Source: Polyangiales bacterium (GTDB lineage Bacteria > Myxococcota_A > Polyangia > Polyangiales > Ga0077539). Taken from it: a stretch of 64,000 nucleotides of DNA. The position numbers and the translations under genes were made by a program. The notes under the pieces are model-generated. The model was given only the letters and a program-made list of their open reading frames with translations, was not told the origin of the DNA and made no database searches. Position 1 is the first letter of the stretch. The number at the start of each line of letters is the position of its first letter. The stretch spans positions 352,001 through 416,000 of the forward strand of contig JBGARZ010000004.1 of assembly GCA_044229975.1 (NCBI GenBank). Reading direction: 5' to 3'. This document shows, piece by piece, positions 10,475 through 58,030 of the stretch.

Positions 10475-10501
10475 CCGTGACGAGAGTTCGGAACAGGCGC
10501 C

Positions 10502-10678
10502 GGCAGCGTGGAAGGTGAGAGAGCCGCAAGGGCGCGAGGGTCGCAAGGAACGGATGAGTAGGGATTGGGCACGGCATTCGGAGCAGGCGACCCACAACCG
10601 AATCTGGTCCTCCCATCCATACCCATCCGCTCCTTGCGACCCTCGCGCCCTTGCGGCTCTCTCACCTTCCACGCCGCC
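10502..10678. repeat. Intergenic inverted repeat with ~60-bp arms (MITE/REP-like foldback)
   Basis: GGCAGCGTGGAAGGTGAGAGAGCCGCAAGGGCGCGAGGGTCGCAAGGAACGGATGAGTA reappears as its reverse complement ending at 10678 with few mismatches. Confidence 0.9.
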
Positions 10679-10751
10679 AACGCCCAATCCAACCTCCGAC
10701 GCGGTGACGAGACGCTTGCCTCCGGGCGCGTGATCGCGCCAAGGTGGACCC

Positions 10752-17533: not shown

Positions 17534-18139
17534 ATGAGCAGCAGGATTGAATCGGGTCTGACCATCGAGGGCAGCGTTCGCGGCGAAGGGGAGCTGGTGG
17601 TCGCCGGTCGACTCCGCGGCGCGCTGGTGTTGCAAGGCACGCTGGTGGTCGAAGAGGGCGGCGTCGTCGAGGCCGAGGTGGAGGCCAGCTCGGTGGTGGT
17701 GGCGGGCGTTCTGTCGGGGAGCGTCACGGCCCACGACGAGATGCGCATCCTGTCGGGCGGCTTCGTCGACGCGCGGGTGCGCGCGGCCCGGCTGGCGTCG
17801 GCCGAGGGCGCGGTGTTTCGTGGCGAGCTGCAAGCGGTGCTGACGCCGTCGGCCGCGCCCGCGCTCGCGCCCGCGGCGACGAGGGAGCGGCTGTCTCCGT
17901 CGGCGCCGGCGCCTCGCGCGCTGGAGCCGGTGGTGCCGGCGGTGGCGGTTCCGACGGCGCCTCCGGTGCCGGTGCCGACGGCGCCGAAGCGGCGGGCGTT
18001 TGCGTCGCCGTCGGTGACACCGGTGGGGACGCCGTCGAGCGCGCCGACGATGGTGGTTCCGCCGAAGCCCGCGGCGCCGTCGGGCCCGCCGCGGATGCCC
18101 GCGCTCCCGAAGGGGCGCAGCAGCTTCCAGGGACGGTGA
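17534..18139 (+). CDS. Bactofilin (polymer-forming cytoskeletal protein) with a Pro-rich C-terminal tail
   Basis: IESGLTIEGSVRGEGELVVAGRLRG...VVAGVLSGSV...EGAVFRG beta-helix repeats. Confidence 0.88.
   Translation: MSSRIESGLTIEGSVRGEGELVVAGRLRGALVLQGTLVVEEGGVVEAEVEASSVVVAGVLSGSVTAHDEMRILSGGFVDARVRAARLASAEGAVFRGELQAVLTPSAAPALAPAATRERLSPSAPAPRALEPVVPAVAVPTAPPVPVPTAPKRRAFASPSVTPVGTPSSAPTMVVPPKPAAPSGPPRMPALPKGRSSFQGR
18060..18137 (+). repeat. 78-bp direct repeat, copy 1 (bactofilin 3' end; left island boundary)
   Basis: Matches 28483-28560 with 7 mismatches by hand alignment. Confidence 0.9.
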
Positions 18140-18155: not shown

Positions 18156-18195
18156 AGACACTTTCACGGTGAGTTGGGTCACTGAGAAAGTGTCT
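18156..18195. repeat. ~40-bp palindromic site, copy 1
   Basis: AGACACTTTCACGGTG-AGTTGGGT-CACTGAGAAAGTGTCT. Confidence 0.9.
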
Positions 18196-18291
18196 CGGCG
18201 CGATGGGCTCTGGGCCTTGTGAAGCGAGGGTGGGCGTCGGCGGGGCGGAGGTCGTGCGCGAGGCACGCCAAGTACTCGTCGACCGTCACAC

Positions 18292-18993
18292 TCACGGGCT
18301 CGCACTCGGTCGCGACGGCGGGTCCTGCACCTCCACCCAGAGTGTGGTTTCGTCGTCAGCTTCGCCGCTCGCGAACCGTACCGACACGCCGTCCGGGCGC
18401 CAGCGGACGTCCGAGTCGTAGCTCATCTCCGCCGGGCTCTCGAAGGTGCGCTGCGTGCCGCGGGTCAGGTCGATGAGGACACCGCCGCGGTGGTTGCCAT
18501 CGACGGACAGCGCGCGGCGACCGTCGGGCGAGCGCTCTACGGCCAGTCCGACGGCGTCGACGAGGACGGTGCCGTCGCGGCCGTAGAGGGCACCCATCTG
18601 ACACGCCGCGCCGCAACCCCAGACGTGCCAGAGGTGGTCCCCTGCGGTCCACTCCAGCGAACCGCCCGTGCCGGGCGCCCAGTGACCCACACGCTCGGGC
18701 TGCGCCCCACGCCGCGCGGGGACCGCGAACACGTCGATCTCGCGCGGCGTCTCGTCGGGCTTCGACCACACATAGAAGAAGCGCCCCGACGGCGAGAAGC
18801 TCGCTTCGACGAACGAGCGGTACGGCAGCGCGGCGAAGCGCACCCACGTGGTGCACGCGCTCCCCTCGCAGGCCTCGACGCGCAACCCGTCGCGGAGCGA
18901 GCCGCGCGCTCTCAACCGCGGCGGGTCGGCGTGCGCTGTGGCGGGCAGCGCGACAAGACCGACGGCCAACGCGACGAGGACGTCCCGCACCAT
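18292..18993 (-). CDS. Secreted hypothetical protein (WD40/TolB-like repeats)
   Basis: Signal peptide (ALPATAHA); SFSPSGR, RSPDGRR, WRPDG motifs. Confidence 0.65.
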   Translation of the reverse strand: MVRDVLVALAVGLVALPATAHADPPRLRARGSLRDGLRVEACEGSACTTWVRFAALPYRSFVEASFSPSGRFFYVWSKPDETPREIDVFAVPARRGAQPERVGHWAPGTGGSLEWTAGDHLWHVWGCGAACQMGALYGRDGTVLVDAVGLAVERSPDGRRALSVDGNHRGGVLIDLTRGTQRTFESPAEMSYDSDVRWRPDGVSVRFASGEADDETTLWVEVQDPPSRPSASP

Positions 18994-19088
18994 GCGAGTG
19001 GCCGTAGCAGCCGCGCGGTGCGGGCGTCCAGAATGCGGTGCACCATGCTCCCTTGGTGTCAGTCGAGAGCGGCGCGATACTCGACCGC

Positions 19089-19661
19089 ATGGGGTCCCTG
19101 CACACTCTCTCCCTCTTCGCTCTTCTGCTCGCCTGCAAAACCGAGGGGGAGGAGACGGCGAGCGTCATCCCGGGAATCAGGCTTCCTCCCCCGGCGCCAT
19201 CCGGCGCCAACTATGCGAACGCCGACCTCCACGGTCAGGACCTGCATCACCGACGTTTCCACGAGGCAACGTTCACGGGGGCGAACCTGAGTGGGGCGAA
19301 CCTGATGACCTCCGACCTCTCCCGCGCGAACCTCACCGGCGCCGACCTGCGCGGCGCCAACCTGACGACGACAGCCTTCCTCCGCGCGAACCTTACGAAC
19401 GCCAACCTCGAAGGCGCCACGTTGAGGGCCACCGCCCTTATGCGGTCAAACCTTACCGGCGCGAACCTCACGAACGCGGATCTGTCGGCTGCAGTCCTGA
19501 CCGGCGCGAACCTTACCGGCGCGAACCTCACCGGCGCGACACTGATGGCTACCAACCTCCGGGGCGCAAACCTCACGGGGGCGATCCTGACGGGCGTTCA
19601 CTGCGCGCCCGGCATCACGACCTGGCCGGACGGCTTCGAACCGCCGCCGTGCCTGCCGTAG
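19089..19661 (+). CDS. Pentapeptide-repeat lipoprotein
   Basis: LLLAC lipobox; tandem A(N/D)L(T/S/R)G repeats. Confidence 0.85.
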   Translation: MGSLHTLSLFALLLACKTEGEETASVIPGIRLPPPAPSGANYANADLHGQDLHHRRFHEATFTGANLSGANLMTSDLSRANLTGADLRGANLTTTAFLRANLTNANLEGATLRATALMRSNLTGANLTNADLSAAVLTGANLTGANLTGATLMATNLRGANLTGAILTGVHCAPGITTWPDGFEPPPCLP

Positions 19662-19924
19662 GAGCGGTCGCGGCGCTCTACAAGATGCCCGCACGACCCC
19701 GCCGTCGGCGCGGCGCGCCGAGCCAACGAGCTCTCCAACGAATGCGCGGGGAGATCCCCTGCGACGTCGCCGAGAGGGGTACTTCGTAAACTGGGCGTTC
19801 GGTCAGCCAGAGCGGACCCGTGCCGACGATGGTGCCCGTTGGACCTCCGGCCACGGCAACGAGGCCACACGAACGGATTTCTTGACAGCTCCCAGCCGGC
19901 GGAGATCTATGCCAGCACATCGCC

Positions 19925-22711
19925 TTGAACGCCGTTGAGATCGAACAGGCCGTCACAGACCTTGCGGAGCAGTCTTTTGACCCCGCGGTCTTCCCTTATG
20001 CATTCCTTGAAGCCTTTGGCAACAAGGAGACGACGATCAAGAAACTTCGTGTGGGGGGATCGAACAAGTCCGATCTTGCCGGCGGTGTTCTACAGACCAA
20101 CAACATCCACATTCTGACCTGCGATACAGGCGAGGTATCGAAGGCGTTCAAAGTGCTCAAGGACAGCCCCGCCACGACCAAGGCCAAGGCGAAGTTCATC
20201 CTCGCTACTGACGGCATGGACTTCGAGGCGGAGGATCTGATAAGCGGTGAGACGGTCGCCTGCGCGTTTAAAGACTTCCCCAATTACTTCGGCTTCTTCC
20301 TGCCGCTTGCAGGGATCACGACCGTTCGGCAGATTACCGAGAACGCCTTCGACATCCGGGCAACCTGTCGCCTCAATCGCCTCTACATTGAACTACTGCG
20401 AGACAACCCCGAATGGGGAAAGGCCGCGCGTCGCCACGACATGAACCACTTCATGGCGAGGCTCATCTTCTGTTTCTTCGCCGAAGACACCGACATTTTC
20501 GTCGGCAAAGGCAAGTTCACTGAGACCGTCGCGCAGATGAGCGCGAAGAATCCGTCTGATACAGATAAGATCATCAGCACGCTGTTTCTCGCCATGAACA
20601 CCAAGCGAGAGGGACGAGTAGCGGCTAAGACTCCCCGCTGGGCCGACGACTTCCCGTATGTGAACGGCGGCTTGTTCTCCGGTAGCATGGACGTGCCGAA
20701 GTTCAGCAGGATCGCACGATCTTACCTCTTGCATGTTGGCAGCCTTGACTGGACCAGGATCAACCCAGACATCTTCGGATCGATGATCCAAGCCGTTGCG
20801 GACGACGAGGAGCGTGGCGAGTTGGGGATGCACTACACAAGCGTCCCCAATATCCTCAAGGTACTCAAGCCGCTTTTCCTCGACGACCTGCGAGCGCGGC
20901 TTGAGGAAGCCAACACCCCTCGTACCCTGTTCAATCTGCGCAAGCGCATGGCGAAGATCAGGGTCTTCGACCCCGCATGCGGTTCAGGCAACTTCTTAGT
21001 CATCGCCTATAAGGAGATGCGCGAGATCGAGGCGGAGATCAACAAGAGGCGGGGAGAGCCGGCTAGAGCCTCAGAGATTCCGCTTACGAATTTTCGCGGG
21101 ATCGAACTGCGCGACTTCCCTGCCGAGATTGCTCGCCTCGCACTGATCATTGCTGGCTACCAGTGCGACGTGCTCTATCGTGGAAAGCAACTGGCCTTGG
21201 CCGACTTCCTGCCTTTGCGCAATGAAAATTGGATTACCTGCGGTAATGCGCTGCGACTGAACTGGCTTGCTATCTGCCCGCCGACTGGAACCGGAGTGAA
21301 GGTGAAGGCCGATGACCTGTTTGGCACCCCGCTCGACCAAGCCGAGATCGACTTCGAGAACGAAGGCGGCGAGACGTATCTTTGCGGCAATCCACCGTAT
21401 GTGGGCAGCAGTTTGCAGTCCAATTCTCAGAAGGAAGACTTAGAAGATTTGTTCGCGTCGGTTCTTGAGTCTTGGAAGAACCTTGATTACATTGCGGGCT
21501 GGTTCTTCAAGGCTGCACAGTATGCGGAGGCCGTGATCTCCGACTTCGCTTTTGTCAGCACGAACTCAATCTGCCAGGGCCAACAGGTCCCACTGCTGTG
21601 GCCTCTCATGTTTCAGCGGGGCATTCACATTCACTTCGCTCACACGTCATTCAAGTGGTCCAACTTGGCGGCGGCCAACGCCGGCGTAACCGTGGTCATT
21701 GTGGCCGGCACGACGCGCCCGCGTTCCTCAGCGATCTTGTTCTCGTACGACGACGCCGGGTTGCCGCTTAAGCAGAGTGCGGTTCACATCAACGCGTACT
21801 TGGCCCTTGGGGCGGATGTCATCGTCGAGCCTCGAAGCAAGGCGCCAGACTCGCGAGGCCTGATGATGAAAGGGAACATGCCGTCGGACGGCGGATATCT
21901 CGTGCTCTCCTCCGAGGAGCGCGCCGACATCGTTCGTGATGAGAGTCATGCTGATAAGTTTATTTACGGCTATTGCGGCTCTCACGAACTCATCCACAAC
22001 GAAATGAGGCACTGTCTTTGGATACGTGACGACGAGGTTGCCCAGGCGAGTGCCGTTCCGCATATCAAAGTGCGACTGGATGGCGTGCGCGACTTTCGGG
22101 CGAACGCCAAAGCGCCGACAACGCGCCCTTACGCTGCGTTTCCGAACCGCTTTCGTCAAGTTCAAGAAGTCGCACGTAAATTCTCTATTGTCATCCCAAG
22201 GCACTCGTCTGAAAGCCGAGAGTACCTGCCTGTTGGAGTGCTTCCAGCGACCTTCATCATTTCCGATGCCGCCCTGGTCATCTACGATGCTCCGCTTTGG
22301 AACATGGCACTCATCGCGTCGCGGTTGCACCGCTCCTGGATCGCTACGGTGTGTGGACAGTTGGAGACGCGATTTCGCTACTCCAACACCCTCGGTTGGA
22401 ACACCTTCCCTCTCCCAACACTCACAGACAAGAACAAGGCCGATCTCACCCGCTGCGCCGAAGACATTCTACTTACGCGTGAGCGTCACTTCCCGGCGAC
22501 CATCGCAGATCTTTACGATCGGGACGCGATGCCCGATGACTTGCGAGCGGCGCACAATCGCAATGACGAAGTGCTGGAGCGCATCTATATCGGGCGCCGC
22601 TTCAGGAATGATACCGAGCGATTGGAGAAGCTGTTTGATCTGTACATGAAGATGACCGCCACAGCACCACTGCCCAAAGGCAATAGCCGCAAACCGAGAG
22701 CCAAAGCATGA
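19925..22711 (+). CDS. yeeA: YeeA/DnmA (MmeI-like) N6-adenine DNA methyltransferase with specificity domain
   Basis: FPYVNGGLF, IFGSMIQ, GMHYTS, FDPACGSGNFL (motif I), GNPPY (motif IV), FVSTNSICQG, RYSNTLGWNTFP; TTG start; lower GC. Confidence 0.92.
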   Translation: MNAVEIEQAVTDLAEQSFDPAVFPYAFLEAFGNKETTIKKLRVGGSNKSDLAGGVLQTNNIHILTCDTGEVSKAFKVLKDSPATTKAKAKFILATDGMDFEAEDLISGETVACAFKDFPNYFGFFLPLAGITTVRQITENAFDIRATCRLNRLYIELLRDNPEWGKAARRHDMNHFMARLIFCFFAEDTDIFVGKGKFTETVAQMSAKNPSDTDKIISTLFLAMNTKREGRVAAKTPRWADDFPYVNGGLFSGSMDVPKFSRIARSYLLHVGSLDWTRINPDIFGSMIQAVADDEERGELGMHYTSVPNILKVLKPLFLDDLRARLEEANTPRTLFNLRKRMAKIRVFDPACGSGNFLVIAYKEMREIEAEINKRRGEPARASEIPLTNFRGIELRDFPAEIARLALIIAGYQCDVLYRGKQLALADFLPLRNENWITCGNALRLNWLAICPPTGTGVKVKADDLFGTPLDQAEIDFENEGGETYLCGNPPYVGSSLQSNSQKEDLEDLFASVLESWKNLDYIAGWFFKAAQYAEAVISDFAFVSTNSICQGQQVPLLWPLMFQRGIHIHFAHTSFKWSNLAAANAGVTVVIVAGTTRPRSSAILFSYDDAGLPLKQSAVHINAYLALGADVIVEPRSKAPDSRGLMMKGNMPSDGGYLVLSSEERADIVRDESHADKFIYGYCGSHELIHNEMRHCLWIRDDEVAQASAVPHIKVRLDGVRDFRANAKAPTTRPYAAFPNRFRQVQEVARKFSIVIPRHSSESREYLPVGVLPATFIISDAALVIYDAPLWNMALIASRLHRSWIATVCGQLETRFRYSNTLGWNTFPLPTLTDKNKADLTRCAEDILLTRERHFPATIADLYDRDAMPDDLRAAHNRNDEVLERIYIGRRFRNDTERLEKLFDLYMKMTATAPLPKGNSRKPRAKA

Positions 22712-24765
22712 GTGACAAGATCCAATCTATTCCGTCTGTCTCTGTCACCTACGCTCGCAACGGCGCATCTACGAAGGCCAACGCCTTTGGGATGCGGCCC
22801 ATGCAAGAGCGTGTCTACGAGAAGCGCGGTGAGCAGTATCTCCTCATCAAGTCACCCCCTGCGTCGGGCAAGAGCCGCGCCCTCATGTTTGTTGCGCTCG
22901 ACAAGCTGAAGAATCAAGGCTTGAAGCAGGCTATCATCGTCGTGCCGGAGAGGTCCATCGGAGCCAGCTTTAACGATGAGCCGCTGTCCAAATTCGGCTT
23001 TTGGTCCGACTGGCATGTCGAGCCAAAGTGGAACCTCTGCAACGCCCCCGGGAATGACAATGGCGGCAAGGTCAAGTCGCTCGGTGCGTTTCTCGAATCC
23101 GACGACAAGGTGTTGGTATGCACGCACGCGACGTTCCGGTTCGCCGTTGACGCCTACGGCGTGGAGGCCTTCGATGATCGCCTCATCGCGGTTGATGAGT
23201 TCCATCATGTTTCGGCCAACCCCGATAATCGGCTAGGCACGCACCTCGGGCAGCTCATAGCACGGGAACGCACTCACATCGTCGCCATGACCGGATCCTA
23301 CTTCCGAGGCGACGCTGAGGCCGTTCTTAGCCCGAAGGATGAAGCCAATTTCGATACCGTCACTTACACTTATTACGAACAGCTCAATGGCTATGAGTAT
23401 TTGAAGCAGCTCGATATCGGCTATTTCTTCTACAGCGGCCCTTACGTCGACAGCATCCTCAGTGTTCTAAACCCCGCCGAAAAGACGATCATCCACATCC
23501 CTAACGTCAATGCGCGCGAGAGCACAAAGGACAAGGTGCGCGAAGTGGAAGACATCATCGGGGCGTTAGGCGAGTGGCAGGGCGCCGACGCCGCGACGGG
23601 CTTCCAACTTGTCAAGCGACCTGATGGTCAACTGCTGCGCGTCGCCGATCTTGTCGATGACGATCCCGTCAAGCGCGACCGCGTGTCTGCTGCGCTCAGG
23701 GTTTCAGCACAGAAGATGAACAGGGAGTATGTGGACATCATCATCGCGCTCGGCATGGCGAAAGAGGGCTTTGACTGGATTTGGTGCGAACATGCGCTGA
23801 CTGTTGGCTACCGCGCCAGCTTGACCGAGATCGTGCAGATCATCGGTCGCGCAACCCGCGACGCGCCCGGCAAGACTCGCGCGAGGTTCACCAACCTGAT
23901 CGCCGAACCGGACGCCTCCGAAGAAGCCGTGACGGAGGCCGTTAACGACACCTTGAAGGCCATCGCCGCGAGCCTCCTGATGGAGCAGGTTCTCGCTCCG
24001 CGCTTCGAATTCAAGTCGAAGAACGCGGATAGCGGCCCAACGCCTGACTACGACTACGGCGAGGGCGGCTACGATCCAGACAAGTCCAACATTGGCTTCA
24101 ACCATCAGACGGGACAGGTGCAGATCGAGATCAAGGGGCTTGCGGAACCCAAAAGCAAAGAAGCTGCCCGCATTTGTCTGGAGGACCTGAACGAGGTGAT
24201 CGCCACCTTCATCCAGGACAAAACCGCTATCGAACGCGGCTTGTTCGATGATGAACTGGTGCCGGAGGAACTGACGCAGATTCGCATGGGCAAGATTATC
24301 AAGGACAGGTACCCCGAGCTTGACGCGGAAGATCAGGAGTCCGTACGTCAGCACGCCATAGCCGCCCTCAACCTGACGCAACAGGCAAAGCGGCTTGTCA
24401 CGGGAGTTGAAGGCGATAAGACCTCCCGAAACACCGCCTTGCTCGACGGCGTGCGCCGCTTTGCTATGGACGTTCGCGAACTAGACATAGACCTGATCGA
24501 TCGCATCAATCCCTTTGGTGAAGCCTACGCTATCCTCGCTAAGACCATGAGCGAGGGAACCTTGAAGCAGGTCGCGGCGGCAATCTCCGCCAAGCGAGCG
24601 AACCTGACGCCCGAGGACGCGAAGGAACTTGCGATCCGTGCCTTCCAGTTCAAGAGGGAGCGTGGTCGGGTGCCCGCGCTGGATTCGCAGGATGCATGGG
24701 AGCGCCGCATGGCCGAAGGGGCGGCTTCCTTCATGCGCTATAAGAAGGAGGGGCGTTATGAGTGA
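22708..24765 (+). CDS. yeeB: YeeB-like superfamily 2 (DEAD/DEAH-type) helicase
   Basis: PPASGKSRA, VDEFHH, MTGSYFRGD, MAKEGFDW, QIIGRATR; ATGA overlap with the methyltransferase. Confidence 0.9.
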   Translation: MSDKIQSIPSVSVTYARNGASTKANAFGMRPMQERVYEKRGEQYLLIKSPPASGKSRALMFVALDKLKNQGLKQAIIVVPERSIGASFNDEPLSKFGFWSDWHVEPKWNLCNAPGNDNGGKVKSLGAFLESDDKVLVCTHATFRFAVDAYGVEAFDDRLIAVDEFHHVSANPDNRLGTHLGQLIARERTHIVAMTGSYFRGDAEAVLSPKDEANFDTVTYTYYEQLNGYEYLKQLDIGYFFYSGPYVDSILSVLNPAEKTIIHIPNVNARESTKDKVREVEDIIGALGEWQGADAATGFQLVKRPDGQLLRVADLVDDDPVKRDRVSAALRVSAQKMNREYVDIIIALGMAKEGFDWIWCEHALTVGYRASLTEIVQIIGRATRDAPGKTRARFTNLIAEPDASEEAVTEAVNDTLKAIAASLLMEQVLAPRFEFKSKNADSGPTPDYDYGEGGYDPDKSNIGFNHQTGQVQIEIKGLAEPKSKEAARICLEDLNEVIATFIQDKTAIERGLFDDELVPEELTQIRMGKIIKDRYPELDAEDQESVRQHAIAALNLTQQAKRLVTGVEGDKTSRNTALLDGVRRFAMDVRELDIDLIDRINPFGEAYAILAKTMSEGTLKQVAAAISAKRANLTPEDAKELAIRAFQFKRERGRVPALDSQDAWERRMAEGAASFMRYKKEGRYE

Positions 24766-25960
24766 CCCCAACCTTGACGAACTAGCCTCAGAGCTGTCCG
24801 AGTTTGCCGCGCCTGAGAAGTCGGGTGGCCGCCCGCCGCGCGAGGAGCGCTTGATTGCCGGGTTCGAACAAATTCAGCGGTTTGTCGCGAAGCACGATCG
24901 CGCTCCGCAGCACGGGGAAGATCGCGACATTTTTGAGCGGCTGTACGCCGTTCGCTTGGATCGACTGCGAGCACTACCGGAATGCCGCGCGCTCCTCACT
25001 CCGCTAGACCATCAAGGCTTGCTCGGGAGCACGGAAATGGCGTCGGAGGCTGCCCTCACCTACGACGTGGATGAGTTGGCCGCTGAACTCGCGGGCGCAG
25101 CCGAAGTGGACGACATCACCGTTCTGCGCCACGTCCGCACGAGTGTCGACAAGCGCGCCGCCGAGGAGATCGCCGACCGCAAGCGCTGCGATGACTTCGA
25201 GAACTTCAAACCGCTGTTTGAGCGCGTGGAGGCGGACCTCAAGACGGGACTGCGCCAGTCCCATCCCATTGAGGCGGGCCGCCGCGCGATTGAGGCCGGA
25301 GACTTCTTCATCCTCGACGGCATCACCCTCTACGTCGCAGAGGTGGGCGAGCCGTTGAAGACGACTGCTAATGAGGTGGATCGCCGTTTGCGGGCAGTCT
25401 TCGCCAACGGCACCGAGAGCAATCTCCTGCTACGCTCGCTCCAACGTGCGTTCTACAACGATCCCGCCGCACGGCGGTTGGTATCCCGAGAGAGCGGACA
25501 ACTTTCGTTCGGCGGCGAGTTTGAAGCAGACGATGTTGAGAGCGGTACGATCTACGTCCTTCGCTCGTCGTCTGATGACCCCTATGTCGCGCAGCACCGC
25601 GACCTGATCCACAAGATTGGCGTGACGGGCGGCAGGGTAGAGACTCGCATCGCCGACGCCGAGCACGACGCTACATACCTTCTGGCTAAGGTCGAAGTGG
25701 TCGCCACGTATAAGCTGGCAGGCATCAACCGCACTCGAATGGAAAAGCTGTTTCACCGACTGTTCGCGTCGGCTCGACTGAACATCACCATCAAAGACCG
25801 TTTCGGTCACCCCGTGCAGCCGCAGGAATGGTTCCTCGTTCCACTGTTCGTCGTTGACGAAGCCGTAGAGCGCATCAGGGACGGGTCGATAACCAACTAC
25901 GTTTATGATCCCGAGGCAGCGCGTCTGGTAATGCCGATTTCTGCGTCGCGCGAAGGCTGA
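24758..25960 (+). CDS. yeeC: YeeC-like GIY-YIG/T5orf172 nuclease-domain protein
   Basis: SGTIYVLRS...HKIGVT...MEKLFHRLF...PQEWFLVP; overlaps the helicase stop; AAGGAGG RBS. Confidence 0.88.
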   Translation: MSDPNLDELASELSEFAAPEKSGGRPPREERLIAGFEQIQRFVAKHDRAPQHGEDRDIFERLYAVRLDRLRALPECRALLTPLDHQGLLGSTEMASEAALTYDVDELAAELAGAAEVDDITVLRHVRTSVDKRAAEEIADRKRCDDFENFKPLFERVEADLKTGLRQSHPIEAGRRAIEAGDFFILDGITLYVAEVGEPLKTTANEVDRRLRAVFANGTESNLLLRSLQRAFYNDPAARRLVSRESGQLSFGGEFEADDVESGTIYVLRSSSDDPYVAQHRDLIHKIGVTGGRVETRIADAEHDATYLLAKVEVVATYKLAGINRTRMEKLFHRLFASARLNITIKDRFGHPVQPQEWFLVPLFVVDEAVERIRDGSITNYVYDPEAARLVMPISASREG

Positions 25961-26223
25961 ACAGGCAGACTCAATGCTTCTACGCACGGCGATTGGGTGT
26001 GCCCTCCAGCGAGGTCTCCTACGGCGCGCGAGGAGATCCCAATCGACATCGCTGCCAAATGAACTTCGTGGTCTGGGCCATCTGGTAGAGCGGATCCGTG
26101 TCGACAAGGGTGCCCCGCTGGACCTCCTATTGGCCGTCGCTGTCAACCGCGGCGCGTCGACCCCACTGACGCGCGCTCGTGCGCCGTCGCTGCGCGCCCG
26201 GTGCGCTGGTACGGTGCCGCCCG

Positions 26224-26985
26224 ATGGGCATTCGGGGAGTCTTGGTCGGGGCGCTCGCGATGCTCGGCTGCGGCTCGACCGCGGCCTCGACCGACGCCGG
26301 GTCGGACGCACGCCCGGGCTTCGACGCCTCGCAGGCGTGCGGGCTCCAGCAGTATCAGTTGGCGTCGCAGCTCCTCGCGCCGAACGAAGGGCGGCCCGCG
26401 TGCTCGGTGGTCGTGAGGATCTCGGCGACCACGATGCGTCCGACGGGCTTTCAGGCGTTCTGCGGAGCTGCGACGGGCGCGACGGACGCGCAGGCCGCGG
26501 CGCTCGCGGAGGCGGCGATGATTCCCTCCGCGACGCCGCAGCGCGTGGAGGCCGCGACGCCTGCGGATGCGTTCTTGTTCTACGCGCCGCCTAGCGACCT
26601 CGGCGGCATCGTGGCGGTGAGTGCGCGGCTGGGCGTGACGGTGTTCGCGGCGCCCGTGGTGTGGGGCAACCCCGAGCAGACCTTCGTCCCCGCGCAGTGG
26701 CGCGACGGGTCGGAGCTCGCCTACGGCTGCGGCACCGGCGTGGTGATCCCGCGTGTGCGCGGCGTGAACCTGTCCAGCGGCGCGGCCCTCGACGCGGCGA
26801 CGATCGAGCCGGTGACCGACGCGATCCGCCGCACGATGCTGCCGGGCGCGCTCGCCGACCGGGGCGCGGTGCTCGACGCGGTGGTGTTCGGCTACGACCC
26901 GACGCCGGGGCGCGACGGAGACGGCGACGACGGCCCGCTGTGGATCGCCATCGTCAACGCAGGAAGGGACGACCCGACGCCATGA
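26224..26985 (+). CDS. Hypothetical lipoprotein
   Basis: MGIRGVLVGALAMLGC lipobox; host-like codon usage. Confidence 0.7.
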   Translation: MGIRGVLVGALAMLGCGSTAASTDAGSDARPGFDASQACGLQQYQLASQLLAPNEGRPACSVVVRISATTMRPTGFQAFCGAATGATDAQAAALAEAAMIPSATPQRVEAATPADAFLFYAPPSDLGGIVAVSARLGVTVFAAPVVWGNPEQTFVPAQWRDGSELAYGCGTGVVIPRVRGVNLSSGAALDAATIEPVTDAIRRTMLPGALADRGAVLDAVVFGYDPTPGRDGDGDDGPLWIAIVNAGRDDPTP

Positions 26986-27284
26986 AGTTCATCGACCTCG
27001 TCGCGCCGCGCCGCCTGGGCGCGCTGGCGCTGGGCGCGGCTGTCACGCTCTCGTGGGGCGAGCGCGCCGCGGCGTGCCGGTGTCGGCTCTACGATCAGGA
27101 GCAGCTCACGCTGGAGCTCGAATCGGTCACGGTCGACGGCGCGCCGACCGCCGACGTCGCGGCCTGGCAGCGGAACGACGTGACGCTCCATCCCGACCCC
27201 AATGGCGAGGTGCTCACGCTGCGATGGCACGAGCGTGATGGCGGCGCAGGCGAGGGGAGCGAGCGCTATGACCCGATCCGTTAG
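26982..27284 (+). CDS. Small secreted hypothetical protein
   Basis: ATGA overlap; signal peptide ending AAA-CRC. Confidence 0.6.
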   Translation: MKFIDLVAPRRLGALALGAAVTLSWGERAAACRCRLYDQEQLTLELESVTVDGAPTADVAAWQRNDVTLHPDPNGEVLTLRWHERDGGAGEGSERYDPIR

Positions 27285-27558
27285 CCTGCTGTTCGCGGCG
27301 CTCGCGGTCGCCGCCGCGGGGTGCGGGAGCGAGCGATTCGGCTCGTGCGAGGGGGTCGTGTGCCCGCCGCTGCAACGGGTCGCGGTCCGCGCTGGGTCTT
27401 ATGAGGGGTAGCTCGCGACGACCGTGACGCCGTCGGCGGTCCCGTTTCCGCGCGACGAGTCGCGGCGGACGTTGGTGGTTGACCGCGACGCGGGGGTGGT
27501 GACCATCACCGCGGCGCGCGACGGCAGCGTGGTCGTCGAGCGCTGGCGCATCCGTTAG
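27268..27558 (+). pseudogene. Small lipoprotein gene interrupted by an in-frame TAG (27409-27411)
   Basis: AAAGC lipobox; the frame continues past the TAG with typical codon usage to VVVERWRIR*. Confidence 0.55.
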
Positions 27559-27609
27559 CGGGGGTTCAGCCCGAGCGCTCGATCACACCTCCCCCGCGTG
27601 ACCCGCCGC

Positions 27610-27649
27610 AGACACTTTCACAGTGACTCGACCCACCGTGAAAGTGTCT
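27610..27649. repeat. ~40-bp palindromic site, copy 2 (inverted relative to copies 1 and 3)
   Basis: Reverse complement AGACACTTTCACGGTG-GGTCGAGT-CACTGTGAAAGTGTCT. Confidence 0.9.
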
Positions 27650-27659
27650 CCCGCGCCCC

Positions 27660-28394
27660 CTACGCCCCGCCCTTGCGCGCCGCGGCGACCAGTGACACCA
27701 GTGCCGCCAGCGGCATTCGCACCTGCGCGTCGGCGCCGCTTTCCTTGCGCGTCGCGATGAGCTTCGCGGCCACGCCTTCGTCGTCGCCGACGATGGCCCG
27801 CAGCCGCTTGACCGTCGCATCGAAGCGGCGCTGCTCGACCGCGCTCACGGTGAGCCCGCGGCGCGTCGCTCCTGTCGCGGCCGCCCCACGCCGTAGCGTC
27901 GCGGCGGCGTCGTTGATGGCCTGCACCGTCGCCTTCGCCACGTCGAGCACGGCGCCCGACGGGAGCGCGAGCTTCGCCGCCAGGAGGTCTTCGACGCGGT
28001 CGTCTTCGGGCGTGGCGTCGGCGAGGTTCATCAGCGCCGAGGCGCGGTCGGTGCCGAGCTCGCGCACCAGCGACGCGTCGAGCTTCTCGTAGAGCTTGAT
28101 GAGCAGGTCGGCGCGCGTCACCGAGAGGTCGAGCTTCTTCGCGCACAGCGTCTCGAAGGAGCCGTAGCCCATCGCGTCGGCGACCCCCTTGCTCTTCAGC
28201 ACCTGGAGCGCGCGCCCCATCGCGAGGAAGTCGTCGCTGATCTTCGTGCGCAGCGCCTTGATCGCGCTCAGCGCCTTGAATCCCTCATCGGCCAGGCGCT
28301 GTCGTTTCGCATCCCGTTGGGCCCGGGCGTTTCTCTCCAGCGCTGCGGGGAGCTTCGATCGGGTCGCTGCGGTCGAGGTCTTCTTCGTCGCCAT
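27660..28394 (-). CDS. Hypothetical basic helical protein, possibly DUF3102-like DNA-binding
   Basis: Clean ORF; FLAMGRALQVLK...MGYGSFETLCAKKLDLSVTRADLLI resembles DUF3102-type helical domains (family call is inference). Confidence 0.65.
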   Translation of the reverse strand: MATKKTSTAATRSKLPAALERNARAQRDAKRQRLADEGFKALSAIKALRTKISDDFLAMGRALQVLKSKGVADAMGYGSFETLCAKKLDLSVTRADLLIKLYEKLDASLVRELGTDRASALMNLADATPEDDRVEDLLAAKLALPSGAVLDVAKATVQAINDAAATLRRGAAATGATRRGLTVSAVEQRRFDATVKRLRAIVGDDEGVAAKLIATRKESGADAQVRMPLAALVSLVAAARKGGA

Positions 28395-28482
28395 CGACGG
28401 AGGACGTTACCGTTTGCGGAGATGGACCGCGACCCAACGCTGCCGCCGAGGACGCGGCATCTCCTCGCGGCGACTACTTCGG

Positions 28483-28560
28483 CGCCGAAGCCCGCGGCGC
28501 CGTCGGGTCTGCCGCGGATGCGCGCGCTGCCGAAGGGACGCAGCAGCTTCCATGGGCGGT
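28483..28560 (+). repeat. 78-bp direct repeat, copy 2 (orphan bactofilin 3' end; right island boundary)
   Basis: Encodes PKPAAPSGLPRMRALPKGRSSFHGR versus PKPAAPSGPPRMPALPKGRSSFQGR in the intact gene. Confidence 0.9.
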
Positions 28561-28563
28561 TTA

Positions 28564-28879
28564 TACCGATTCACCCCGTCGACGTTCGCGAAGTGGGGGG
28601 CCGGGGTTCACGGTGCAGGCTCCGCGTCCGTCGGGCTCCGTTCACCCCGGTCAATGGTAGGGGGTCACCCCGCCGCTGCGCGACGGGGTTGCAACGGAAG
28701 TCACTGCCCCCCGCTTTTCGTCGGTCAGGAGTGTGACGGATCTCGGGCCTGCAACCCCGTCGCGTAGCGGCGGGGTGACCCCCTACCATTGACCGGGGTG
28801 AACGGAGCCCGACGGACGCGGAGCCTGCACCGTGAACCCCGGCCCCCCACTTCGCGAACGTCAACGGGGTGAATCGGTA
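28564..28879. mobile_element. 316-bp foldback MITE-like element with 130-bp inverted arms and a TTA target duplication
   Basis: Arms 28564-28693 and 28750-28879 (2 mismatches), 56-bp spacer, ends TACCGATTCACCCC/GGGGTGAATCGGTA, flanked by TTA at 28561-28563 and 28880-28882. Confidence 0.8.
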
Positions 28880-28897
28880 TTAGTCCCGGAGCGGGAG

Positions 28898-28936
28898 AGA
28901 CACTTTCACGGTGAGTCGGGTCACTGCGAAAGTGTC
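28898..28936. repeat. ~40-bp palindromic site, copy 3
   Basis: AGACACTTTCACGGTG-AGTCGGGT-CACTGCGAAAGTGTC. Confidence 0.9.
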
Positions 28937-29030
28937 CCGACGAGGCTCACCCATCGCCGCGCACACCGCGGCGACCGTTGGCGCTATGGTCCGCGCCGCT
29001 CACTTTCGAGCGACGAAGGATCACCCCCCA

Positions 29031-29537
29031 ATGGTCGCAGCGCAGATCGCCCAGTTCACCAAGATGCTCGAAAACCTCGACCGCTGGCTCGACAAAGCCG
29101 AGGCCCACGCCGCGAAGAAGTCCTTCGACGTCAACGTCCTCGCGGCCGCGCGGCTCGCGCCCGACCAGTACCCGCTCTCGCGGCAGGTGCAGGCCGCCTG
29201 CGACGCCGCGAAGTTCGCCGCCGCGCGGCTCTCGGGCCAGGAACCGCCGAAGCACCCCGACACCGAGACCACCTTCCCCGAGCTCAAGGCGCGCGTCGCG
29301 TCGGTGCTCGGCTACCTCAAGACCTTCACCCCCGCGAGCTTCGAGGGCGCCTCGTCGCGGGTGGTTCCGCTGTCGTTTCTCCCCGGCAAGGGGCTCGCGG
29401 GCGAGGACTACCTGAACGAGTTGTCCGCGCCCAACTTCTACTTCCACGTCACGACCGCGTACGCGATCCTGCGCCACAACGGCGTCGACGTCGGCAAGAG
29501 CGACTACATGGGTTCGCTCAACCTCCGCGACCTGTGA
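29031..29537 (+). CDS. DUF1993 family (DinB-like fold) protein
   Basis: ARLAPDQYPLSRQVQAACD, PNFYFHVTTAYAILRHNGVDVGKSDY. Confidence 0.92.
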   Translation: MVAAQIAQFTKMLENLDRWLDKAEAHAAKKSFDVNVLAAARLAPDQYPLSRQVQAACDAAKFAAARLSGQEPPKHPDTETTFPELKARVASVLGYLKTFTPASFEGASSRVVPLSFLPGKGLAGEDYLNELSAPNFYFHVTTAYAILRHNGVDVGKSDYMGSLNLRDL

Positions 29538-29967: not shown

Positions 29968-30228
29968 CGCGGCGGAGTAGCGCAGCGGCGACGCTCGCGC
30001 GAGCGCGAAGACGTGCCCCTGTTCCGGTGCGGCCATCGGCGCGGGGCCGATGGCGACTGCCGCGGTTACGGCGCCGGCGCGAGCGTCACGCAGAGCCGGC
30101 GCTGCCGAAGGGGCGCAGCCGCTTCCAGGGGCGGTGACTGCGCGTCCGCCACGGCCGCCGTCACCGGGCCCCACGCCGCAACGTCAGCAAGGCGCGCAAC
30201 GGTCTGGCCCCGGTCGACGACCGGCCCG

Positions 30229-36651: not shown

Positions 36652-36774
36652 TCCCAGAGGATGCAGGGGGCGCGGAGCCACGCGCGATTCCCGAAGCGGG
36701 AGTCGCGCCGCGGATGACGCCCGCCGCTCGTCGTCCCGCGACGAAGGGGCGCGGGAAGGCCGCGCGGTGACGGG

Positions 36775-37557
36775 TCAGTGCCCGGCGGCCTCGTCCTCCA
36801 GCGCGACGAGGCGCGCGTCGATCTCCCCCAGCAGCTCCTCGGCGGCCTCGGCGCCGATGGCCCCCTCGCGGTGTGCGTGCTGCGCCGCGTCCTTCTCGAC
36901 GAGCAGGAGCTGCCGCGCCAGCGCGTGACGCTCCTCGCGCCGGAGCGCCTCGTGGGCGAGGTGCATCGCGCGCAGGTGCTCGTCGCTGGCCGCGAGCCGT
37001 TGGTTGTACTCGTCGCGGAGCTCGGTGAGCACCGCGTCGGACAGTCCGCCCTTCCCGGCCGCCTGCTGGAGCGCGGCGAGCGCGGCGGTCGTCGCGCGCT
37101 GCTCCCCCCGCACGACCTCGTAGCGAACCCGGTCGGTGCCCGCCGCGACGAGCCCGAGGCGCCGCAGCAGCGGGGCCATGGTGAGGCCCTGCCCCAGGAT
37201 GGACACCACCACCACGCCGAAGGTCATCGTCACGATCAGCTCGCGGTGCGGAAGCGACCGCGGCAGCGCCAGGGCGAGCACCATCGAAAGCCCCCCGCGC
37301 AGCCCGCCCCAGGTGAGCACCGCCGCCCACGACGCGGGGAAGCGCTCGCGGGTGCGCCGCAGCGCGAGGCCCACGAGCGCCACCACCACGCCCCGGGCGA
37401 TGGTCACGGCGACGAAGGCCACGAGGATGGGCCTCCAGGCGTGCAGCAGCGCGCCGAGGCGCACCTCGAAGCCGATGAGCAGGAAGACCACCGAGTTGAG
37501 CGCGAAGGCGACGTACTCCCAGAACGACTCCACCGCGAGGCGCGTCGACGGCGACAT
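36775..37557 (-). pseudogene. 5'-truncated duplicate of the CPA1 Na+/H+ antiporter (C-terminal ~260 aa)
   Basis: About 14 substitutions versus 53385-54173 by hand comparison; 5' half lost through an 835-bp deletion at a GCGACATGC microhomology. Confidence 0.88.
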
Positions 37558-37585
37558 GCGTGATCTCGACCAGTTCAACCGGTGG

Positions 37586-37632
37586 AGATGGCGGCCCGAC
37601 CATCCGTTGTCCTGCAACCAGCGGTTGCACCC
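37586..37632 (-). promoter_or_regulatory. nhaA-I RNA motif (Li+-I riboswitch), copy upstream of the truncated antiporter
   Basis: GGGTG-CAACCGCTGGTTG-CAGG-ACAAC-GGATGGTCGGGCCGCCATC; matches the recalled GGGUG..CAGG..GGUCGGGCCGCC consensus. Confidence 0.75.
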
Positions 37633-37737
37633 TGCCGTGGCGTCGGCGGGTCGTCCATCACGGCGGCGGGCGCGGCATGTCACCGCGTGCGTTTCCTTTG
37701 CGCGCGGCGCGCGTTCGGTGTTTGTCTCGACGCGCCG

Positions 37738-53251: not shown

Positions 53252-53388
53252 CAGCTGCGAGAGCGCTCGACCGCGCTCAGGTCGCGGCGGCGTCGTTCGT
53301 TTTCGGGGCGAGCCCGGCGCTGGGAGGGCGGCGAACCCGGGGAAGGGTCACGGGCCCGACGCTCACGACCTCGCTCAACGGCGTCGGG

Positions 53389-54951
53389 TCAGTGCCCGGC
53401 GGCCTCGTCCTCCAGCGCGACGAGGCGCGCGTCGATCTCCCCCAGCAGCTCCTCGGCGGCCTCGGCGCCGATGGCCCCCTCGCGGTGTGCGTGCTGCGCC
53501 GCGTCCTTCTCGACGAGCAGGAGCTGCCGCGCCAGCGCGTGGCGCTCCTCGCGCCGGAGCGCCTCGTGGGCGAGGTGCATCGCGCGCAGGTGCTCGTCGC
53601 TGGCCGCGAGCCTCTGGTTGTACTCGTCGCGGAGCTCGGTGAGCACCGCGTCGGACAGCCCGCCCTTCCCGGCCGCCTGCTGGAGCGCGGCGAGCGCGGC
53701 GGTCGTCGCGCGCTGCTCCCCCCGCACGACCTCGTAGCGAACCCGGTCGGTGCCCGCCGCGACGAGCCCGAGGCGCCGCAGCAGCGGGGCCATGGTGAGG
53801 CCCTGCCCCAGGATGGACACCACCACCACGCCGAAGGTCATCGTCACGATCAGCTCGCGGTGTGGGAGCGAGCGCGGCAGCGCCAGGGCGAGCACCATGG
53901 ACAGCCCCCCGCGCAGCCCGCCCCAGGTGAGCACCGCCGCCCACGACGCGGGGAAGCGCTCGCGGGTGCGCCGCAGCGCGAGGCCCACGAGCGCGACCAC
54001 GACGCCCCGGGCGAGGGTCACGGCGACGAAGGCCACGAGGATGGGCTTCCAGGCGTGCAGCAGCGCGCCGAGGTGCACCTCGAAGCCGATGAGCAGGAAG
54101 ACCACCGAGTTGAGCGCGAAGGCGACGTACTCCCAGAACGACTCCACCGCGAGGCGCGTCGACGGCGACATGCCAGTTCGCGCGCCGTAGTTGCCGCAGA
54201 GCATCCCGGCCACGACGGTCGCGATGACCCCGGATAGGTGCACGCGCTCGGCGAGGGCGAAGGAGCCGTAGGCCGCGATGGTGGTGAGGGTGATCTCGAG
54301 CATCGGGTCCTCGATGCGCTGGGTGGCCTTCGAGGTCGCGTAGCCCACCGCGGCGCCGACGAGCAGACCGCCGCCGACGGTGCGCGCGAAGGTGACGCCG
54401 ACCTCCGCGGCCGAGAGCGACTCGCCGCTGACGAACGCGAGGACGAGGGAGAACACCACCACCGCCGTGCCGTCGTTGAGCAGGCTCTCGCCCTCGATGA
54501 GCACCATCAGCCGCCGCGGCGCGCCGAGCGACTTGAAGAGGCCGACCACGGCGATGGGGTCGGTGGCGGCGAGCAGCGCGGCGAAGACCAGCCCCTGCGC
54601 GAGGGTGAAGCGCTCGACCAGGTGCAGGGTGTTGGTCACCGGCACGAGGATCAGCGCGGTGAGGGAGATGGCGACGACGAGCCCGGGGACGGCGAGCGCG
54701 TGGATGGCCAGCTTGTTCGCCCAGAACTTCTTGAAGTCGAGGTGGAAGGCCGCCTCGAAGACCAGGCCCGGGAGGAAGACGGCGTAGAGCAGCTCGCGGG
54801 TGAGGTGCGGGGGCGAGAGGGCGTGCGTGGCGCCGAGCGCGAGCCCGGTGACCACGAGGGCCACGGTGTAGGGCGTGCGGAGCGCGCGCGCGACCAGCGC
54901 GACGGCGGTCGCGACGAGGAAGAGCGCGACGAAGATGAGCTCATGACCCAT
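53389..54951 (-). CDS. CPA1-family Na+/H+ antiporter (NhaP/NhaG-like)
   Basis: ATDPIAV, EGESLLNDG, SGVIATV, WGGLRG. Confidence 0.94.
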   Translation of the reverse strand: MGHELIFVALFLVATAVALVARALRTPYTVALVVTGLALGATHALSPPHLTRELLYAVFLPGLVFEAAFHLDFKKFWANKLAIHALAVPGLVVAISLTALILVPVTNTLHLVERFTLAQGLVFAALLAATDPIAVVGLFKSLGAPRRLMVLIEGESLLNDGTAVVVFSLVLAFVSGESLSAAEVGVTFARTVGGGLLVGAAVGYATSKATQRIEDPMLEITLTTIAAYGSFALAERVHLSGVIATVVAGMLCGNYGARTGMSPSTRLAVESFWEYVAFALNSVVFLLIGFEVHLGALLHAWKPILVAFVAVTLARGVVVALVGLALRRTRERFPASWAAVLTWGGLRGGLSMVLALALPRSLPHRELIVTMTFGVVVVSILGQGLTMAPLLRRLGLVAAGTDRVRYEVVRGEQRATTAALAALQQAAGKGGLSDAVLTELRDEYNQRLAASDEHLRAMHLAHEALRREERHALARQLLLVEKDAAQHAHREGAIGAEAAEELLGEIDARLVALEDEAAGH

Positions 54952-55034
54952 GGCGACAATGCCCCAGAGAATCGTGTGGGATGGATAGGACGGAGGCGAG
55001 CGACATGCGTGATCTCGACCGGGTCAACCGGTGG

Positions 55035-55081
55035 AGATGGCGGCCCGACCATCCGTTGTCCTGCAACCAGCGGTTGCACCC
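55035..55081 (-). promoter_or_regulatory. nhaA-I RNA motif (Li+-I riboswitch) upstream of the CPA1 antiporter
   Basis: Same motif as 37586-37632, located in the 5' UTR of the intact antiporter. Confidence 0.8.
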
Positions 55082-55197
55082 TGCCGTGGCGTCGGCGAGT
55101 CGTCTATCACGGCGGCGGCGGGCGCGGCACCATGATCGGTCGGAGGGCCCCAACCCCCCCACCACGCGCGCGAGGGCGGACGAAATCGCGGACGGCT

Positions 55198-55225: not shown

Positions 55226-55272
55226 CCCGTCGCAGCCGGTCGGGTACCGGCTCACGAAGGAGCAGAGAGACC

Positions 55273-55701
55273 ATGAACAACGACATCCGCGCGAAGCTTC
55301 TGGTGATGGTGACCGCCGCCCTCGGTGGCGCCGCGATCGAGGGCTGCGCGAGCAGCGCGCCGCCCGCGACGGCCCAGCCCATGGCATCGAGCAGCGCGGG
55401 CGGTCAGGCCGCGAGCTGCGGTGCTCACGCCAGCGCGGGCGGTCAGGCCGCGAGCTGCGGCGCGCACGGTGCGGCTCCCGTCGCGCCGGTGGCCGCACAG
55501 GCCGCGAGCTGCGGCGCCCATGCGCCCGCCGCCACGCCGACCCCCGAGACGGCCCAGGCTGCGAGCTGCGGGCAGACCGGGAGCTGCGGCGCCTCCAACA
55601 CCGCCCACGCCCCGGGCACCACCGCCGCGATGCCCGCCACTCCGGCGGCGATGCCTGCCCCCGCCACCACGGCCGCGGCTCGTCCCCGCGCCACGCGCTG
55701 A
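55273..55701 (+). CDS. Putative MNIO RiPP precursor: exported, lipoprotein-like, with five SCG motifs
   Basis: AAGGAG RBS; hydrophobic signal ending IEG-C25; QAASCGAH x3, QAASCGQ, GSCGA; first gene of a DUF692 operon. Confidence 0.82.
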   Translation: MNNDIRAKLLVMVTAALGGAAIEGCASSAPPATAQPMASSSAGGQAASCGAHASAGGQAASCGAHGAAPVAPVAAQAASCGAHAPAATPTPETAQAASCGQTGSCGASNTAHAPGTTAAMPATPAAMPAPATTAAARPRATR

Positions 55702-55708
55702 GCGACCG

Positions 55709-56542: not shown

Positions 56543-57270
56543 GCGGGCTCGACGCGCAGCAGCGGGCCATCGCGCGGCTGACGCTCGGGGCCGAGCTCGA
56601 CGAGGCCGCGCTGGCCTCGCTGGGTGGCGATCGCGCGCGCTGGCTGGTGTACCGCGACCTGGTGCGCAACCGCCTCTGGGGACTGCTGCTCGAAGCGTTG
56701 CCGCGCACCTTCGCGGCGGCCGGGAGCGAGCGCTTCGGCGGGTGGTTTACCCGCTACCTCGACGAGGAGGCGCCGCGCACGCACTTCGTCCGCGAGGTGG
56801 CGCCGGCCTTCGGTCGGTGGGTGCGCGCGGCGGAGGCCGACGGGCTCGCGGCGCCGTCGCCATGGCTGCCCGAGGCGCTCTCGCTCGACCTGGCCGAGCA
56901 CCACGTCGGGCTCTCGGCGGCGCGCGTCGACGAGTCACGGCTGACCGACTTCGCGATGCACCTCCCAGCGGCCCTCGATCCGACGCACCAACGGTTGCGC
57001 CTCTCGTGGACCCCAGCGGGCGCTTCCGAGGGGCGGGCGTTGCTCCTTCACCGTCACCCGGTGCGGCACACCGTGGAGACGCTCGCGCTCACGCCCATGG
57101 CGGCCGACGTGCTCGACGCGATGGACGACGGGGTGACGCCCGCGGCCGAGGCCGTGCGCGCGGTGCTGGCGCGCGGCGACGTGGTCGCGGGGTCGGCCTT
57201 TGTGGAGAGCTTCGCGGGCCTGCTCGCCGAGCTGATGGAGCGCGGCGTCTTGCGGGGCTCGCTGCGGTAG
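56539..57270 (+). CDS. MNIO partner protein (DUF2063/BufC/HvfC-like)
   Basis: GTGA coupling; RWLVYRDLVRNRL...ALPRT N-terminal motif; winged-helix-like C-terminus (LAELMERGVL). Confidence 0.8.
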   Translation: MSGLDAQQRAIARLTLGAELDEAALASLGGDRARWLVYRDLVRNRLWGLLLEALPRTFAAAGSERFGGWFTRYLDEEAPRTHFVREVAPAFGRWVRAAEADGLAAPSPWLPEALSLDLAEHHVGLSAARVDESRLTDFAMHLPAALDPTHQRLRLSWTPAGASEGRALLLHRHPVRHTVETLALTPMAADVLDAMDDGVTPAAEAVRAVLARGDVVAGSAFVESFAGLLAELMERGVLRGSLR

Positions 57271-57271
57271 C

Positions 57272-57982: not shown

Positions 57983-58030
57983 GGGGGACCTCCGACGTGT
58001 TGGTGGGACGCTGCGATTCGCGCGTCGGCC

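Follow-up and report, generated by a model that had tools for sequence, protein, structure and literature searches.

A predicted ParB-like protein family linked to its own short dyad doublets at the borders of inserted gene cassettes in myxobacterial genomes

Background

In the pdif modules of Acinetobacter plasmids, as set out in the part of the source drawn on here, cargo is separated by repeated short two-part sites of 11-6-11 bp, at which the host enzymes XerC and XerD bring about shuffling and excision between direct sites, and no recombinase is encoded by the module itself (PMC13141974). Additive flexible genomic islands, in the corresponding part of their description, gain and lose cassettes at a fixed chromosomal position with a duplicated fragment of the target gene for each event (PMC5217437). 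The present analysis concerns a stretch of 64,000 nucleotides from a Polyangiales bacterium (contig JBGARZ010000004.1 of assembly GCA_044229975.1, positions 352,001 to 416,000), hereafter the window, to the full length of which all coordinates refer, and in it three copies of a palindrome of about 40 bp accompanying a gene for a protein of 244 amino acids (aa). A reading made earlier from the letters of the window (hereafter the sequence-only reading) had compared the palindromes with loxP and proposed that they form a pair with the gene and are tied to a cargo of defence genes.

Other systems with short sites are also relevant to such a locus. The palindromic units of 17-18 bp that adjoin the gene described here, in many cases immediately downstream, may be likened in position to sopC and P1 parS. 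Tyrosine recombinases have a catalytic domain with the residues R-K-H-R-H/W-Y. The linked gene-site system at the present locus is real and is wider than the three copies in the window: gene clade and site are linked, the sites stand at the borders of insertions, arrays separated by sites as well as filled and empty alleles exist, and no integrase recurs among the loci.

Results and discussion

Linkage of the gene with its own doublet

The family of the 244-aa protein is multi-copy in the taxonomic family of the host, with 135 matches in 24 of 31 genomes. The loci examined comprise 91 of these matches, taken mostly by score, and one metagenome locus (92 in all); genomes, loci and contigs are designated G, L and C, with G000 for the window's own genome of 10 Mb. 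Many of the loci carry, adjoining the gene, a doublet of two 17-18 bp dyads that stand 21-22 bp apart and vary in sequence by clade. A strict detector found a doublet beside the gene at 44 of the 92 loci (15 of 82 upstream and 32 of 89 downstream flanks), while the flanks of ordinary G000 genes, used as control for the same detector, gave 0 in 800 and 1 in 800. In homologues with 80% identity (in G003 and on two metagenome contigs), the site lies 11 bp past the stop and shows a double-sided arm change. With similar palindromes following these homologues, a motif restricted to the clade and doublets of their own in other clades, the gene and the palindrome are the linked pair that the sequence-only reading had suspected.

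The similarity of the sites follows that of the proteins. Sites were at least 75% alike in 14 of the 16 pairs of proteins with at least 75% identity, as against 5 of the 845 pairs below it, and 28 distinct site families were recognised among 42 loci. The class of the spacer (7 or 8 bp) changes twice on the protein tree of 41 loci, compared with 11.8 changes when the labels are shuffled. Out of sample, doublets were present at six of eight paralogue loci in G270, a genome of a different family; loci from G235 and G012 (two) had none. The 46 family doublets include 30 direct and 16 inverted ones, and because the direct form is the more frequent, the trait conserved across the family is, on these sequences, not the long palindrome; it is the two short dyads 21-22 bp apart. 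A relaxed genome-wide scan for doublets returned 85 places, mostly 7-codon repeats, so that the signature is unspecific without the gene.

Further observations concern individual members of the family. Two other intact paralogues in G000 have upstream sites without clear extra copies in that genome, and intergenic-looking doublets with a 21-22 bp period at G000:C10:15093, C20:172149, C25:174677 and C23:144907 match no known paralogue site. The paralogue L003 (G000:C36:145451) and its orthologues (L037-L041, L064) are settled between an Hcp gene and an epimerase gene in most genomes of the genus, with one conserved dyad about 60 bp upstream that has a variable 8-bp core; this type of copy looks like a domesticated, autoregulated one. 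In the closest homologues (L020:5850-6812 and L023:4100-4350) the site is followed by an array of 35-bp repeats flanking a RAYT-like Y1 transposase.

Palindrome copies in the window and in the genome

The three copies were found at the positions and in the orientations described by the sequence-only reading, each with a G-rich tract ahead of it. Copy 1 (18156-18195, plus strand) is a doublet of 17-bp dyads with a 21-bp period and lies 16 bp past the stop of a bactofilin gene; copy 2 (27610-27649, minus strand) follows the stop of the 244-aa gene (27660-28394, minus strand) at a distance of 10 bp; copy 3 (28898-28937, plus strand) is a 40-bp palindrome. A matrix built from the copies scored 45-74, on either strand, at five sites of G000 and at most 14 everywhere else, and this clean separation means that the palindromes in the window are not due to chance. 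The genome-wide count called for by the sequence-only reading thus stands at only five. The two copies outside the window (C19:273155 and C36:295436) have about 79 bp, including flanks, in common at 89% identity, and the C36 copy borders DNA that has been inserted behind a conserved gene. When three mismatches or fewer are allowed, 2 of 41 genomes contain the motif, G000 and G003, which are the two that carry this gene clade. An exact-pattern scan of GTDB gave two places, both on contigs of one uncultured Myxococcaceae bacterium genome, and the motif was absent from the viral contigs searched.

The sequence-only reading had divided the palindrome into 16-nt arms around an asymmetric 8-nt core. 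The inverted arms are there, and since they can also be paired as 17 bp with a loop of 6 nt, the 16+8+16 division is one reading among several. Each 40-bp palindrome is more aptly taken as a pair of 17-bp dyads with a 21-bp period. The window palindrome corresponds to the inverted form of the family doublet (CAC-N7-GTG twice at 21 bp). A canonical parS-like site and a single merged palindrome were both rejected as accounts of the sites, of which they explain none.

The 244-aa protein

A word search gave 18 homologues of the protein and 706 cluster representatives were obtained at E <= 0.001; in the phylum, the family is patchy (30 of 301, counting relatives with the N-terminal half alone). Pfam, NCBIfam and PADLOC contained no family for it, and PHROGs gave unnamed families only. 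The predicted structure (pLDDT 82, pTM 0.56) consists of a basic tail, a long helix, a helical bundle with a helix-turn-helix (HTH) predicted to be of ParB type, a beta-hairpin and a C-terminal alpha-beta-beta-alpha domain. In a comparison of hidden Markov models with hhalign, the profile of 80 members aligned in register with the HTH and the C-terminal domains of seven ParB-family sequences. The local score was 31.0 (reversed alignment 16.1, best of 40 block shuffles 23.2) and the global score 26.2 (6.4 and 10.0, respectively); comparison with one single ParB sequence was not significant. The N-terminus has no ParB_N CTPase domain, the model showing the basic tail and one long helix there, and TIGR00180 has no match at the locus. 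What is predicted is a ParB-like, DNA-binding protein with neither a CTPase nor a catalytic domain.

The residues kept at 90% or more among the 80 homologues are G, A, L, R117, T128, D132 and R168, with no Tyr, His or nucleophilic Ser conserved at that level and no conserved catalytic set. The profile and fold searches suggested by the sequence-only reading gave a moderate match to the ParB HTH and C-terminal domains and no recombinase fold. Foldseek against the PDB found nothing at E <= 0.001 for either model, the rows for Cre being insignificant (E 0.67, TM 0.12) and regarded as noise; as a whole, the fold comparisons were uninformative. VIA-align matched the N-terminal helix only, a sequence search of the PDB gave no match and a BFVD fold search returned uncharacterised phage proteins (best E 2.9e-4). 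Neighbours in the Atlas, which rest on language-model similarity and serve as leads only, were DUF3102, Borrelia PF49 and pGP6-type proteins. For DUF3102 (PF11300) that similarity is 0.91-0.94 and the profile hit 1 of the 80 members (E 0.048); membership was rejected on the result of the Pfam profile at this locus.

A conserved single-copy protein with a lysine-rich tail (L136-L147, L153, L157 and G000:C32:149354) has only the half with the N-terminal helix and the HTH in common with the family. It is present, as L136-L147, L153 and L157, in the majority of genomes of a related family, a complete genome of 1.8 Mb among them, and no doublets were found beside these relatives.

Doublets at the borders of inserted gene blocks

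Larger loci with a gene-adjacent doublet (33) were read mostly for about 12 kb to one side. Further copies of the locus's own doublet more than 100 bp away were present in 15 of them (19 direct, 4 inverted), and a cross-locus control gave 12 hits in 1,056 pairs, every one between loci of the same clade. Six copies occur within 12 kb at L319 and four at L308. Searches with the doublets of five other clades found more copies, often paired on one contig, and for 13 of the 17 genome-by-family cases with sites, the window's included, the cognate gene was found.

Several loci could be compared with relatives lacking the insert. On G002:C19, a unit of 8.9 kb has a doublet at either end, the gene just ahead of the last one and a target duplication of 19-23 bp outside; the empty allele, with the target once and without a doublet, is found in G004 (flanks 97% identical) and in G003. 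At the 3' end of recA, there is a solo doublet in G004, a site-gene-site arrangement in G008 and site-cargo-gene-site in G003, and the solo site in a relative has hybrid flanks. Different inserts begin right after doublets at the 3' end of a TPR-kinase gene and at the start of eutB. A solo doublet in G003 is a clean insertion of 35-39 bp at the 3' end of a kinase gene, missing in three orthologues, and the smallest units consist of site-gene-site only (L267, L325, L326). Defence and toxin-antitoxin genes abound in the cargo (HEC-01, type III methylase, McrBC-like, PIN, DarTG, HNH). The proposed tie between palindromes and defence cargo thus holds in the form that the sites border inserted, often defence, gene blocks.

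At L296, L297 and L319, a remnant of the 3' end of the family gene itself is found ahead of the partner sites on the upstream side, which suggests repeated insertion at the gene's own site. A duplication at L264 was rejected as a target duplication, being part of a paralogous block of about 1 kb.

The sequence-only reading had noted that no recombinase or RAYT is encoded in the window. There is indeed no tyrosine recombinase in it, the nearest of the 12 PF00589 matches in the genome lying 19 kb past its end, and no integrase, transposase or RAYT was found among 37 open reading frames (ORFs) at 16-63 kb scanned with Pfam; for RAYTs the statement holds for that part alone, as 1-16 kb was not covered. 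No integrase was found among 73 neighbouring and 61 cargo ORFs of the family loci, which include only two IS91-type transposases and one RAYT, and a single ParA/MinD-like ORF occurs among the 134. Five sequencing runs contained no site-to-site excision or inversion joint, at a cover too low to be informative. Single contigs of run X3 switch to other DNA, one (depth about 2) before 28960 and one at 30101.

Comparison with described systems

The HTH and the C-terminal domain align, at moderate probability, in register with ParB, as would suit a relation to ParB-parS, but the family differs in the absence of the ParB_N CTPase domain, of a recurrent ParA and in having many orthogonal paralogues per genome with sites at cassette borders; lacking both the CTPase domain and a linked ParA, it was rejected as a ParABS partition system. 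The chromosomal parB gene (G000:C19:562264) is carried by the window's contig, some 180 kb away.

With additive flexible islands, in the part of their description used here, the locus shares the fixed position and the duplicated target end, of which three bactofilin 3' ends are seen in the window, whereas the targets are the ends of protein genes (bactofilin, recA, lon, kinases) and not tRNAs, no integrase is present and a dedicated doublet stands at the junction (PMC5217437). The locus thus has the cassettes and the target ends of an island of this type and was set apart from it for want of an integrase. Similarly, it shares with pdif modules the separation of modules by short two-part sites and differs, as far as that part of the source goes, in units of about 5+7/8+5 bp, in at least 28 unrelated site families each with its own small protein, in the chromosomal location and in the duplicated flanks (PMC13141974); without an 11-6-11 site, it was not accepted as a pdif/dif module.

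The likeness to Cre-loxP lies in the inverted arms around an asymmetric core, in the window's clade alone, but there is no cognate recombinase, the long inverted arms are not conserved in the family and the junctions are imprecise, and a Cre/lox-type system was rejected. With REP/REPIN-RAYT systems, the doublets share short palindromes past stop codons; they differ in having few copies, no 5' tetranucleotide and a partner that is not an HUH transposase, and a REPIN-like hairpin family exists separately in the genome. This identity too was rejected, there being five copies and one RAYT among 73 neighbours, which bears its own repeats. Full-text searches of the literature, which extended to neither subscription papers nor supplements, gave no account of the protein family or of the doublets. 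The anatomy of the system fits no known kind among those tested, and its mechanism is one that we infer.

Probable mode of action and alternatives

The account that we somewhat favour is that the protein binds its own doublet and pairs such sites so that host recombination would add or remove cassettes, the doublet being inherited together with the gene. Binding of the doublet, taken alone, is highly probable. Each dyad would be occupied by one protein dimer, both dimers on the same face of the helix, since 21-22 bp amounts to two turns. Pairing of sites would bring incoming or excised DNA beside a resident site, and host enzymes would perform the crossover in or beside the paired sites, which would account for the variable flank duplications of 19-96 bp and for the solo sites left after loss. 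In the window, the bactofilin end with site 1 and a bactofilin-end copy with site 3 (see below) would be a duplicated junction of this kind.

A number of points weigh against this account. Binding, pairing and recombination are, for this protein, steps that we infer. The doublet detector was written after the flanks had been seen, and its strict form overlooks the window's own site; a relaxed form finds that site and gives 43 of the 92 loci, the figures for control genes applying to the strict form only. About half of the family loci, including the close homologue L036, are without a doublet by the detector. Because kin share sites, the concordance with the protein tree demonstrates co-inheritance and not binding. 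Sites without a cognate gene were found in 4 of the 17 genome-by-family cases, in draft genomes. Clear duplication of the DNA upstream of the site (23-78 bp) was seen at 4 of 34 sites tested, and an apparent target duplication at L310 was rejected, being absent from its G002 counterpart. The ParB profile match is moderate (hhalign probability 31% local, 62% global) and the Pfam profiles for HTH_ParB and DUF3102 have no match at the window gene. Finally, the doublets upstream of the gene (15 of 82 loci) lie 60-145 bp ahead of the start, a promoter-like position such as an operator would occupy.

The last point speaks for the strongest alternative, in which the doublet serves a ParB-like repressor or roadblock as operator, so as to regulate or insulate both the cassettes and the gene itself, with its border position due to hitchhiking and mobility due to ordinary recombination in flexible islands. 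Such a role would agree with a protein that has no catalytic residues, with some partner copies preceding promoter-like stretches and with a toxic cargo, which would favour insulation. However, the doublet comes in most cases after the stop codon, frequently with repeats or a convergent gene farther on; the G002:C19 unit with its target duplication has a doublet as each of its termini; and the solo doublet of G003 was gained as a clean insertion. This alternative is considered credible but unlikely.

Still less probable is that a recombinase provided in trans (XerC/D or another genomic tyrosine recombinase) uses the doublets for crossover, as in pdif, and that the 244-aa protein assists it as an accessory or directionality factor. 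The dyads with 7-8 bp spacers, the arrays of direct repeats, the hybrid flanks of the solo site at recA and the 12 tyrosine recombinases of the genome would all be accommodated by it. One host enzyme is, however, unlikely to read 28 unrelated site families, several of them in one genome; the half-sites of about 5 bp compare with 11 bp in pdif, in the part of that account used here (PMC13141974); and the variation in length among the duplicated flanks is at odds with a precise crossover.

That the 244-aa protein itself is a novel recombinase or transposase acting on these sites, in keeping with the loxP comparison of the sequence-only reading, is very improbable, even though the smallest units hold nothing else and the gene adjoins the terminal site, a frequent position for an integrase. 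Conserved Tyr, His and nucleophilic Ser residues are lacking, the Cre matches are insignificant and the profile fits a ParB binding domain; with direct doublets prevailing and copies 1 and 3 not bounding the island, the loxP analogy is not supported. A terminator or stabiliser hairpin in RNA, or a REP-type repeat that has no cognate protein, would suit the three window copies, which follow stop codons or a gene-end copy, and some arm changes that preserve pairing, but it can hardly be maintained with only five copies tied to one gene clade (which also speaks against a generic REP), no U-tract at the palindrome, no Rfam match, a majority of direct doublets unable to form one long stem and a site sequence that tracks the protein clade.

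The proposed pairing of sites by the protein would, in its broadest form, define a class of mobile units without an integrase. In this tentative proposal, which we would put forward without asserting it, a non-catalytic ParB derivative without a CTPase and its own doublet of 38-40 bp would suffice for integron-like arrays of defence cassettes, seeding solo sites at gene ends, pairing them and steering host recombination, with dozens of orthogonal pairs per genome.

The insertion after the bactofilin gene and its contents

The bactofilin gene (17534-18139, plus strand; PF04519) is conserved in 9 of 9 genomes of the genus, and the insertion has its left border at the 3' end of this gene. Eight genomes of the same genus were found, in two of which the flank stops at a contig edge; in all six usable relatives, the gene with its start at 63734 in the window comes immediately after bactofilin. 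Homology with the relatives ends at 18139 and resumes at 63714-63717, and the lineage-specific insertion therefore extends over about 45.5 kb (18140-63713). Copies 1 and 3 had been taken as the two ends of an island, which is not the case, as the insertion reaches to about 63713.

Low GC content is confined to about 19.7-26.0 kb within the insertion, around a defence cargo (19925-25960, plus strand) of an MmeI-like type IIG restriction-methyltransferase, a helicase and a T5orf172/MUG113 protein. It is followed by a block (26136-27558, plus strand) that has an 84% identical paralogue on contig C24, the homology ending about 50 bp ahead of site 2. Beyond the 244-aa gene lie three features, of which the sequence-only reading had missed all: a second copy of the bactofilin 3' end (28483-28560, plus strand, 91%), a hairpin of 319 bp with 131-bp arms (28561-28879) between the 244-aa gene and copy 3, and a third, more decayed bactofilin 3'-end copy (30069-30142, plus strand). 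With the hairpin removed, the second copy joins site 3, and this junction repeats the one at copy 1 over about 140 bp. The hairpin belongs to a REPIN-like, genome-wide repeat family of some two dozen copies, and contigs of near-identical strains (public runs X1 and X2) leave it out exactly; its absence there marks it as a separate and recent insertion. The first cargo beyond site 3 is a DUF1993 gene (29031-29537, plus strand; assigned by Pfam), and the remaining cargo beyond the left defence part comprises transport, regulation and metabolism genes.

Other repeats and paralogous blocks were noted in the window. Another hairpin (10484-10696, 85-bp arms) comes from a far more abundant genome-wide family of short repeats. 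Within the insertion, a stretch of about 900 bp from a Na+/H+ exchanger gene with its flank is duplicated at 95-98% identity between 36765-37669 and 53379-55129, 16.6 kb apart, and a block at 55255-61246 with an MbnB/TglH-type RiPP enzyme, DUF2063, YceI and an ECF sigma factor has a paralogous block with 83-90% identity on contig C31.

Conclusion

Defence hotspots without an integrase are common, and there is little explanation of how they gain their cassettes. Here, such junctions are marked by a small protein family together with a site defined by its sequence, and both filled and empty alleles exist for comparison. The doublet signature lets cassette borders be predicted in myxobacterial genomes. 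The protein-site pairs may also represent orthogonal parts for DNA pairing or targeting, and at least 28 such pairs that have diverged naturally offer material on how ParB-type domains change their specificity.

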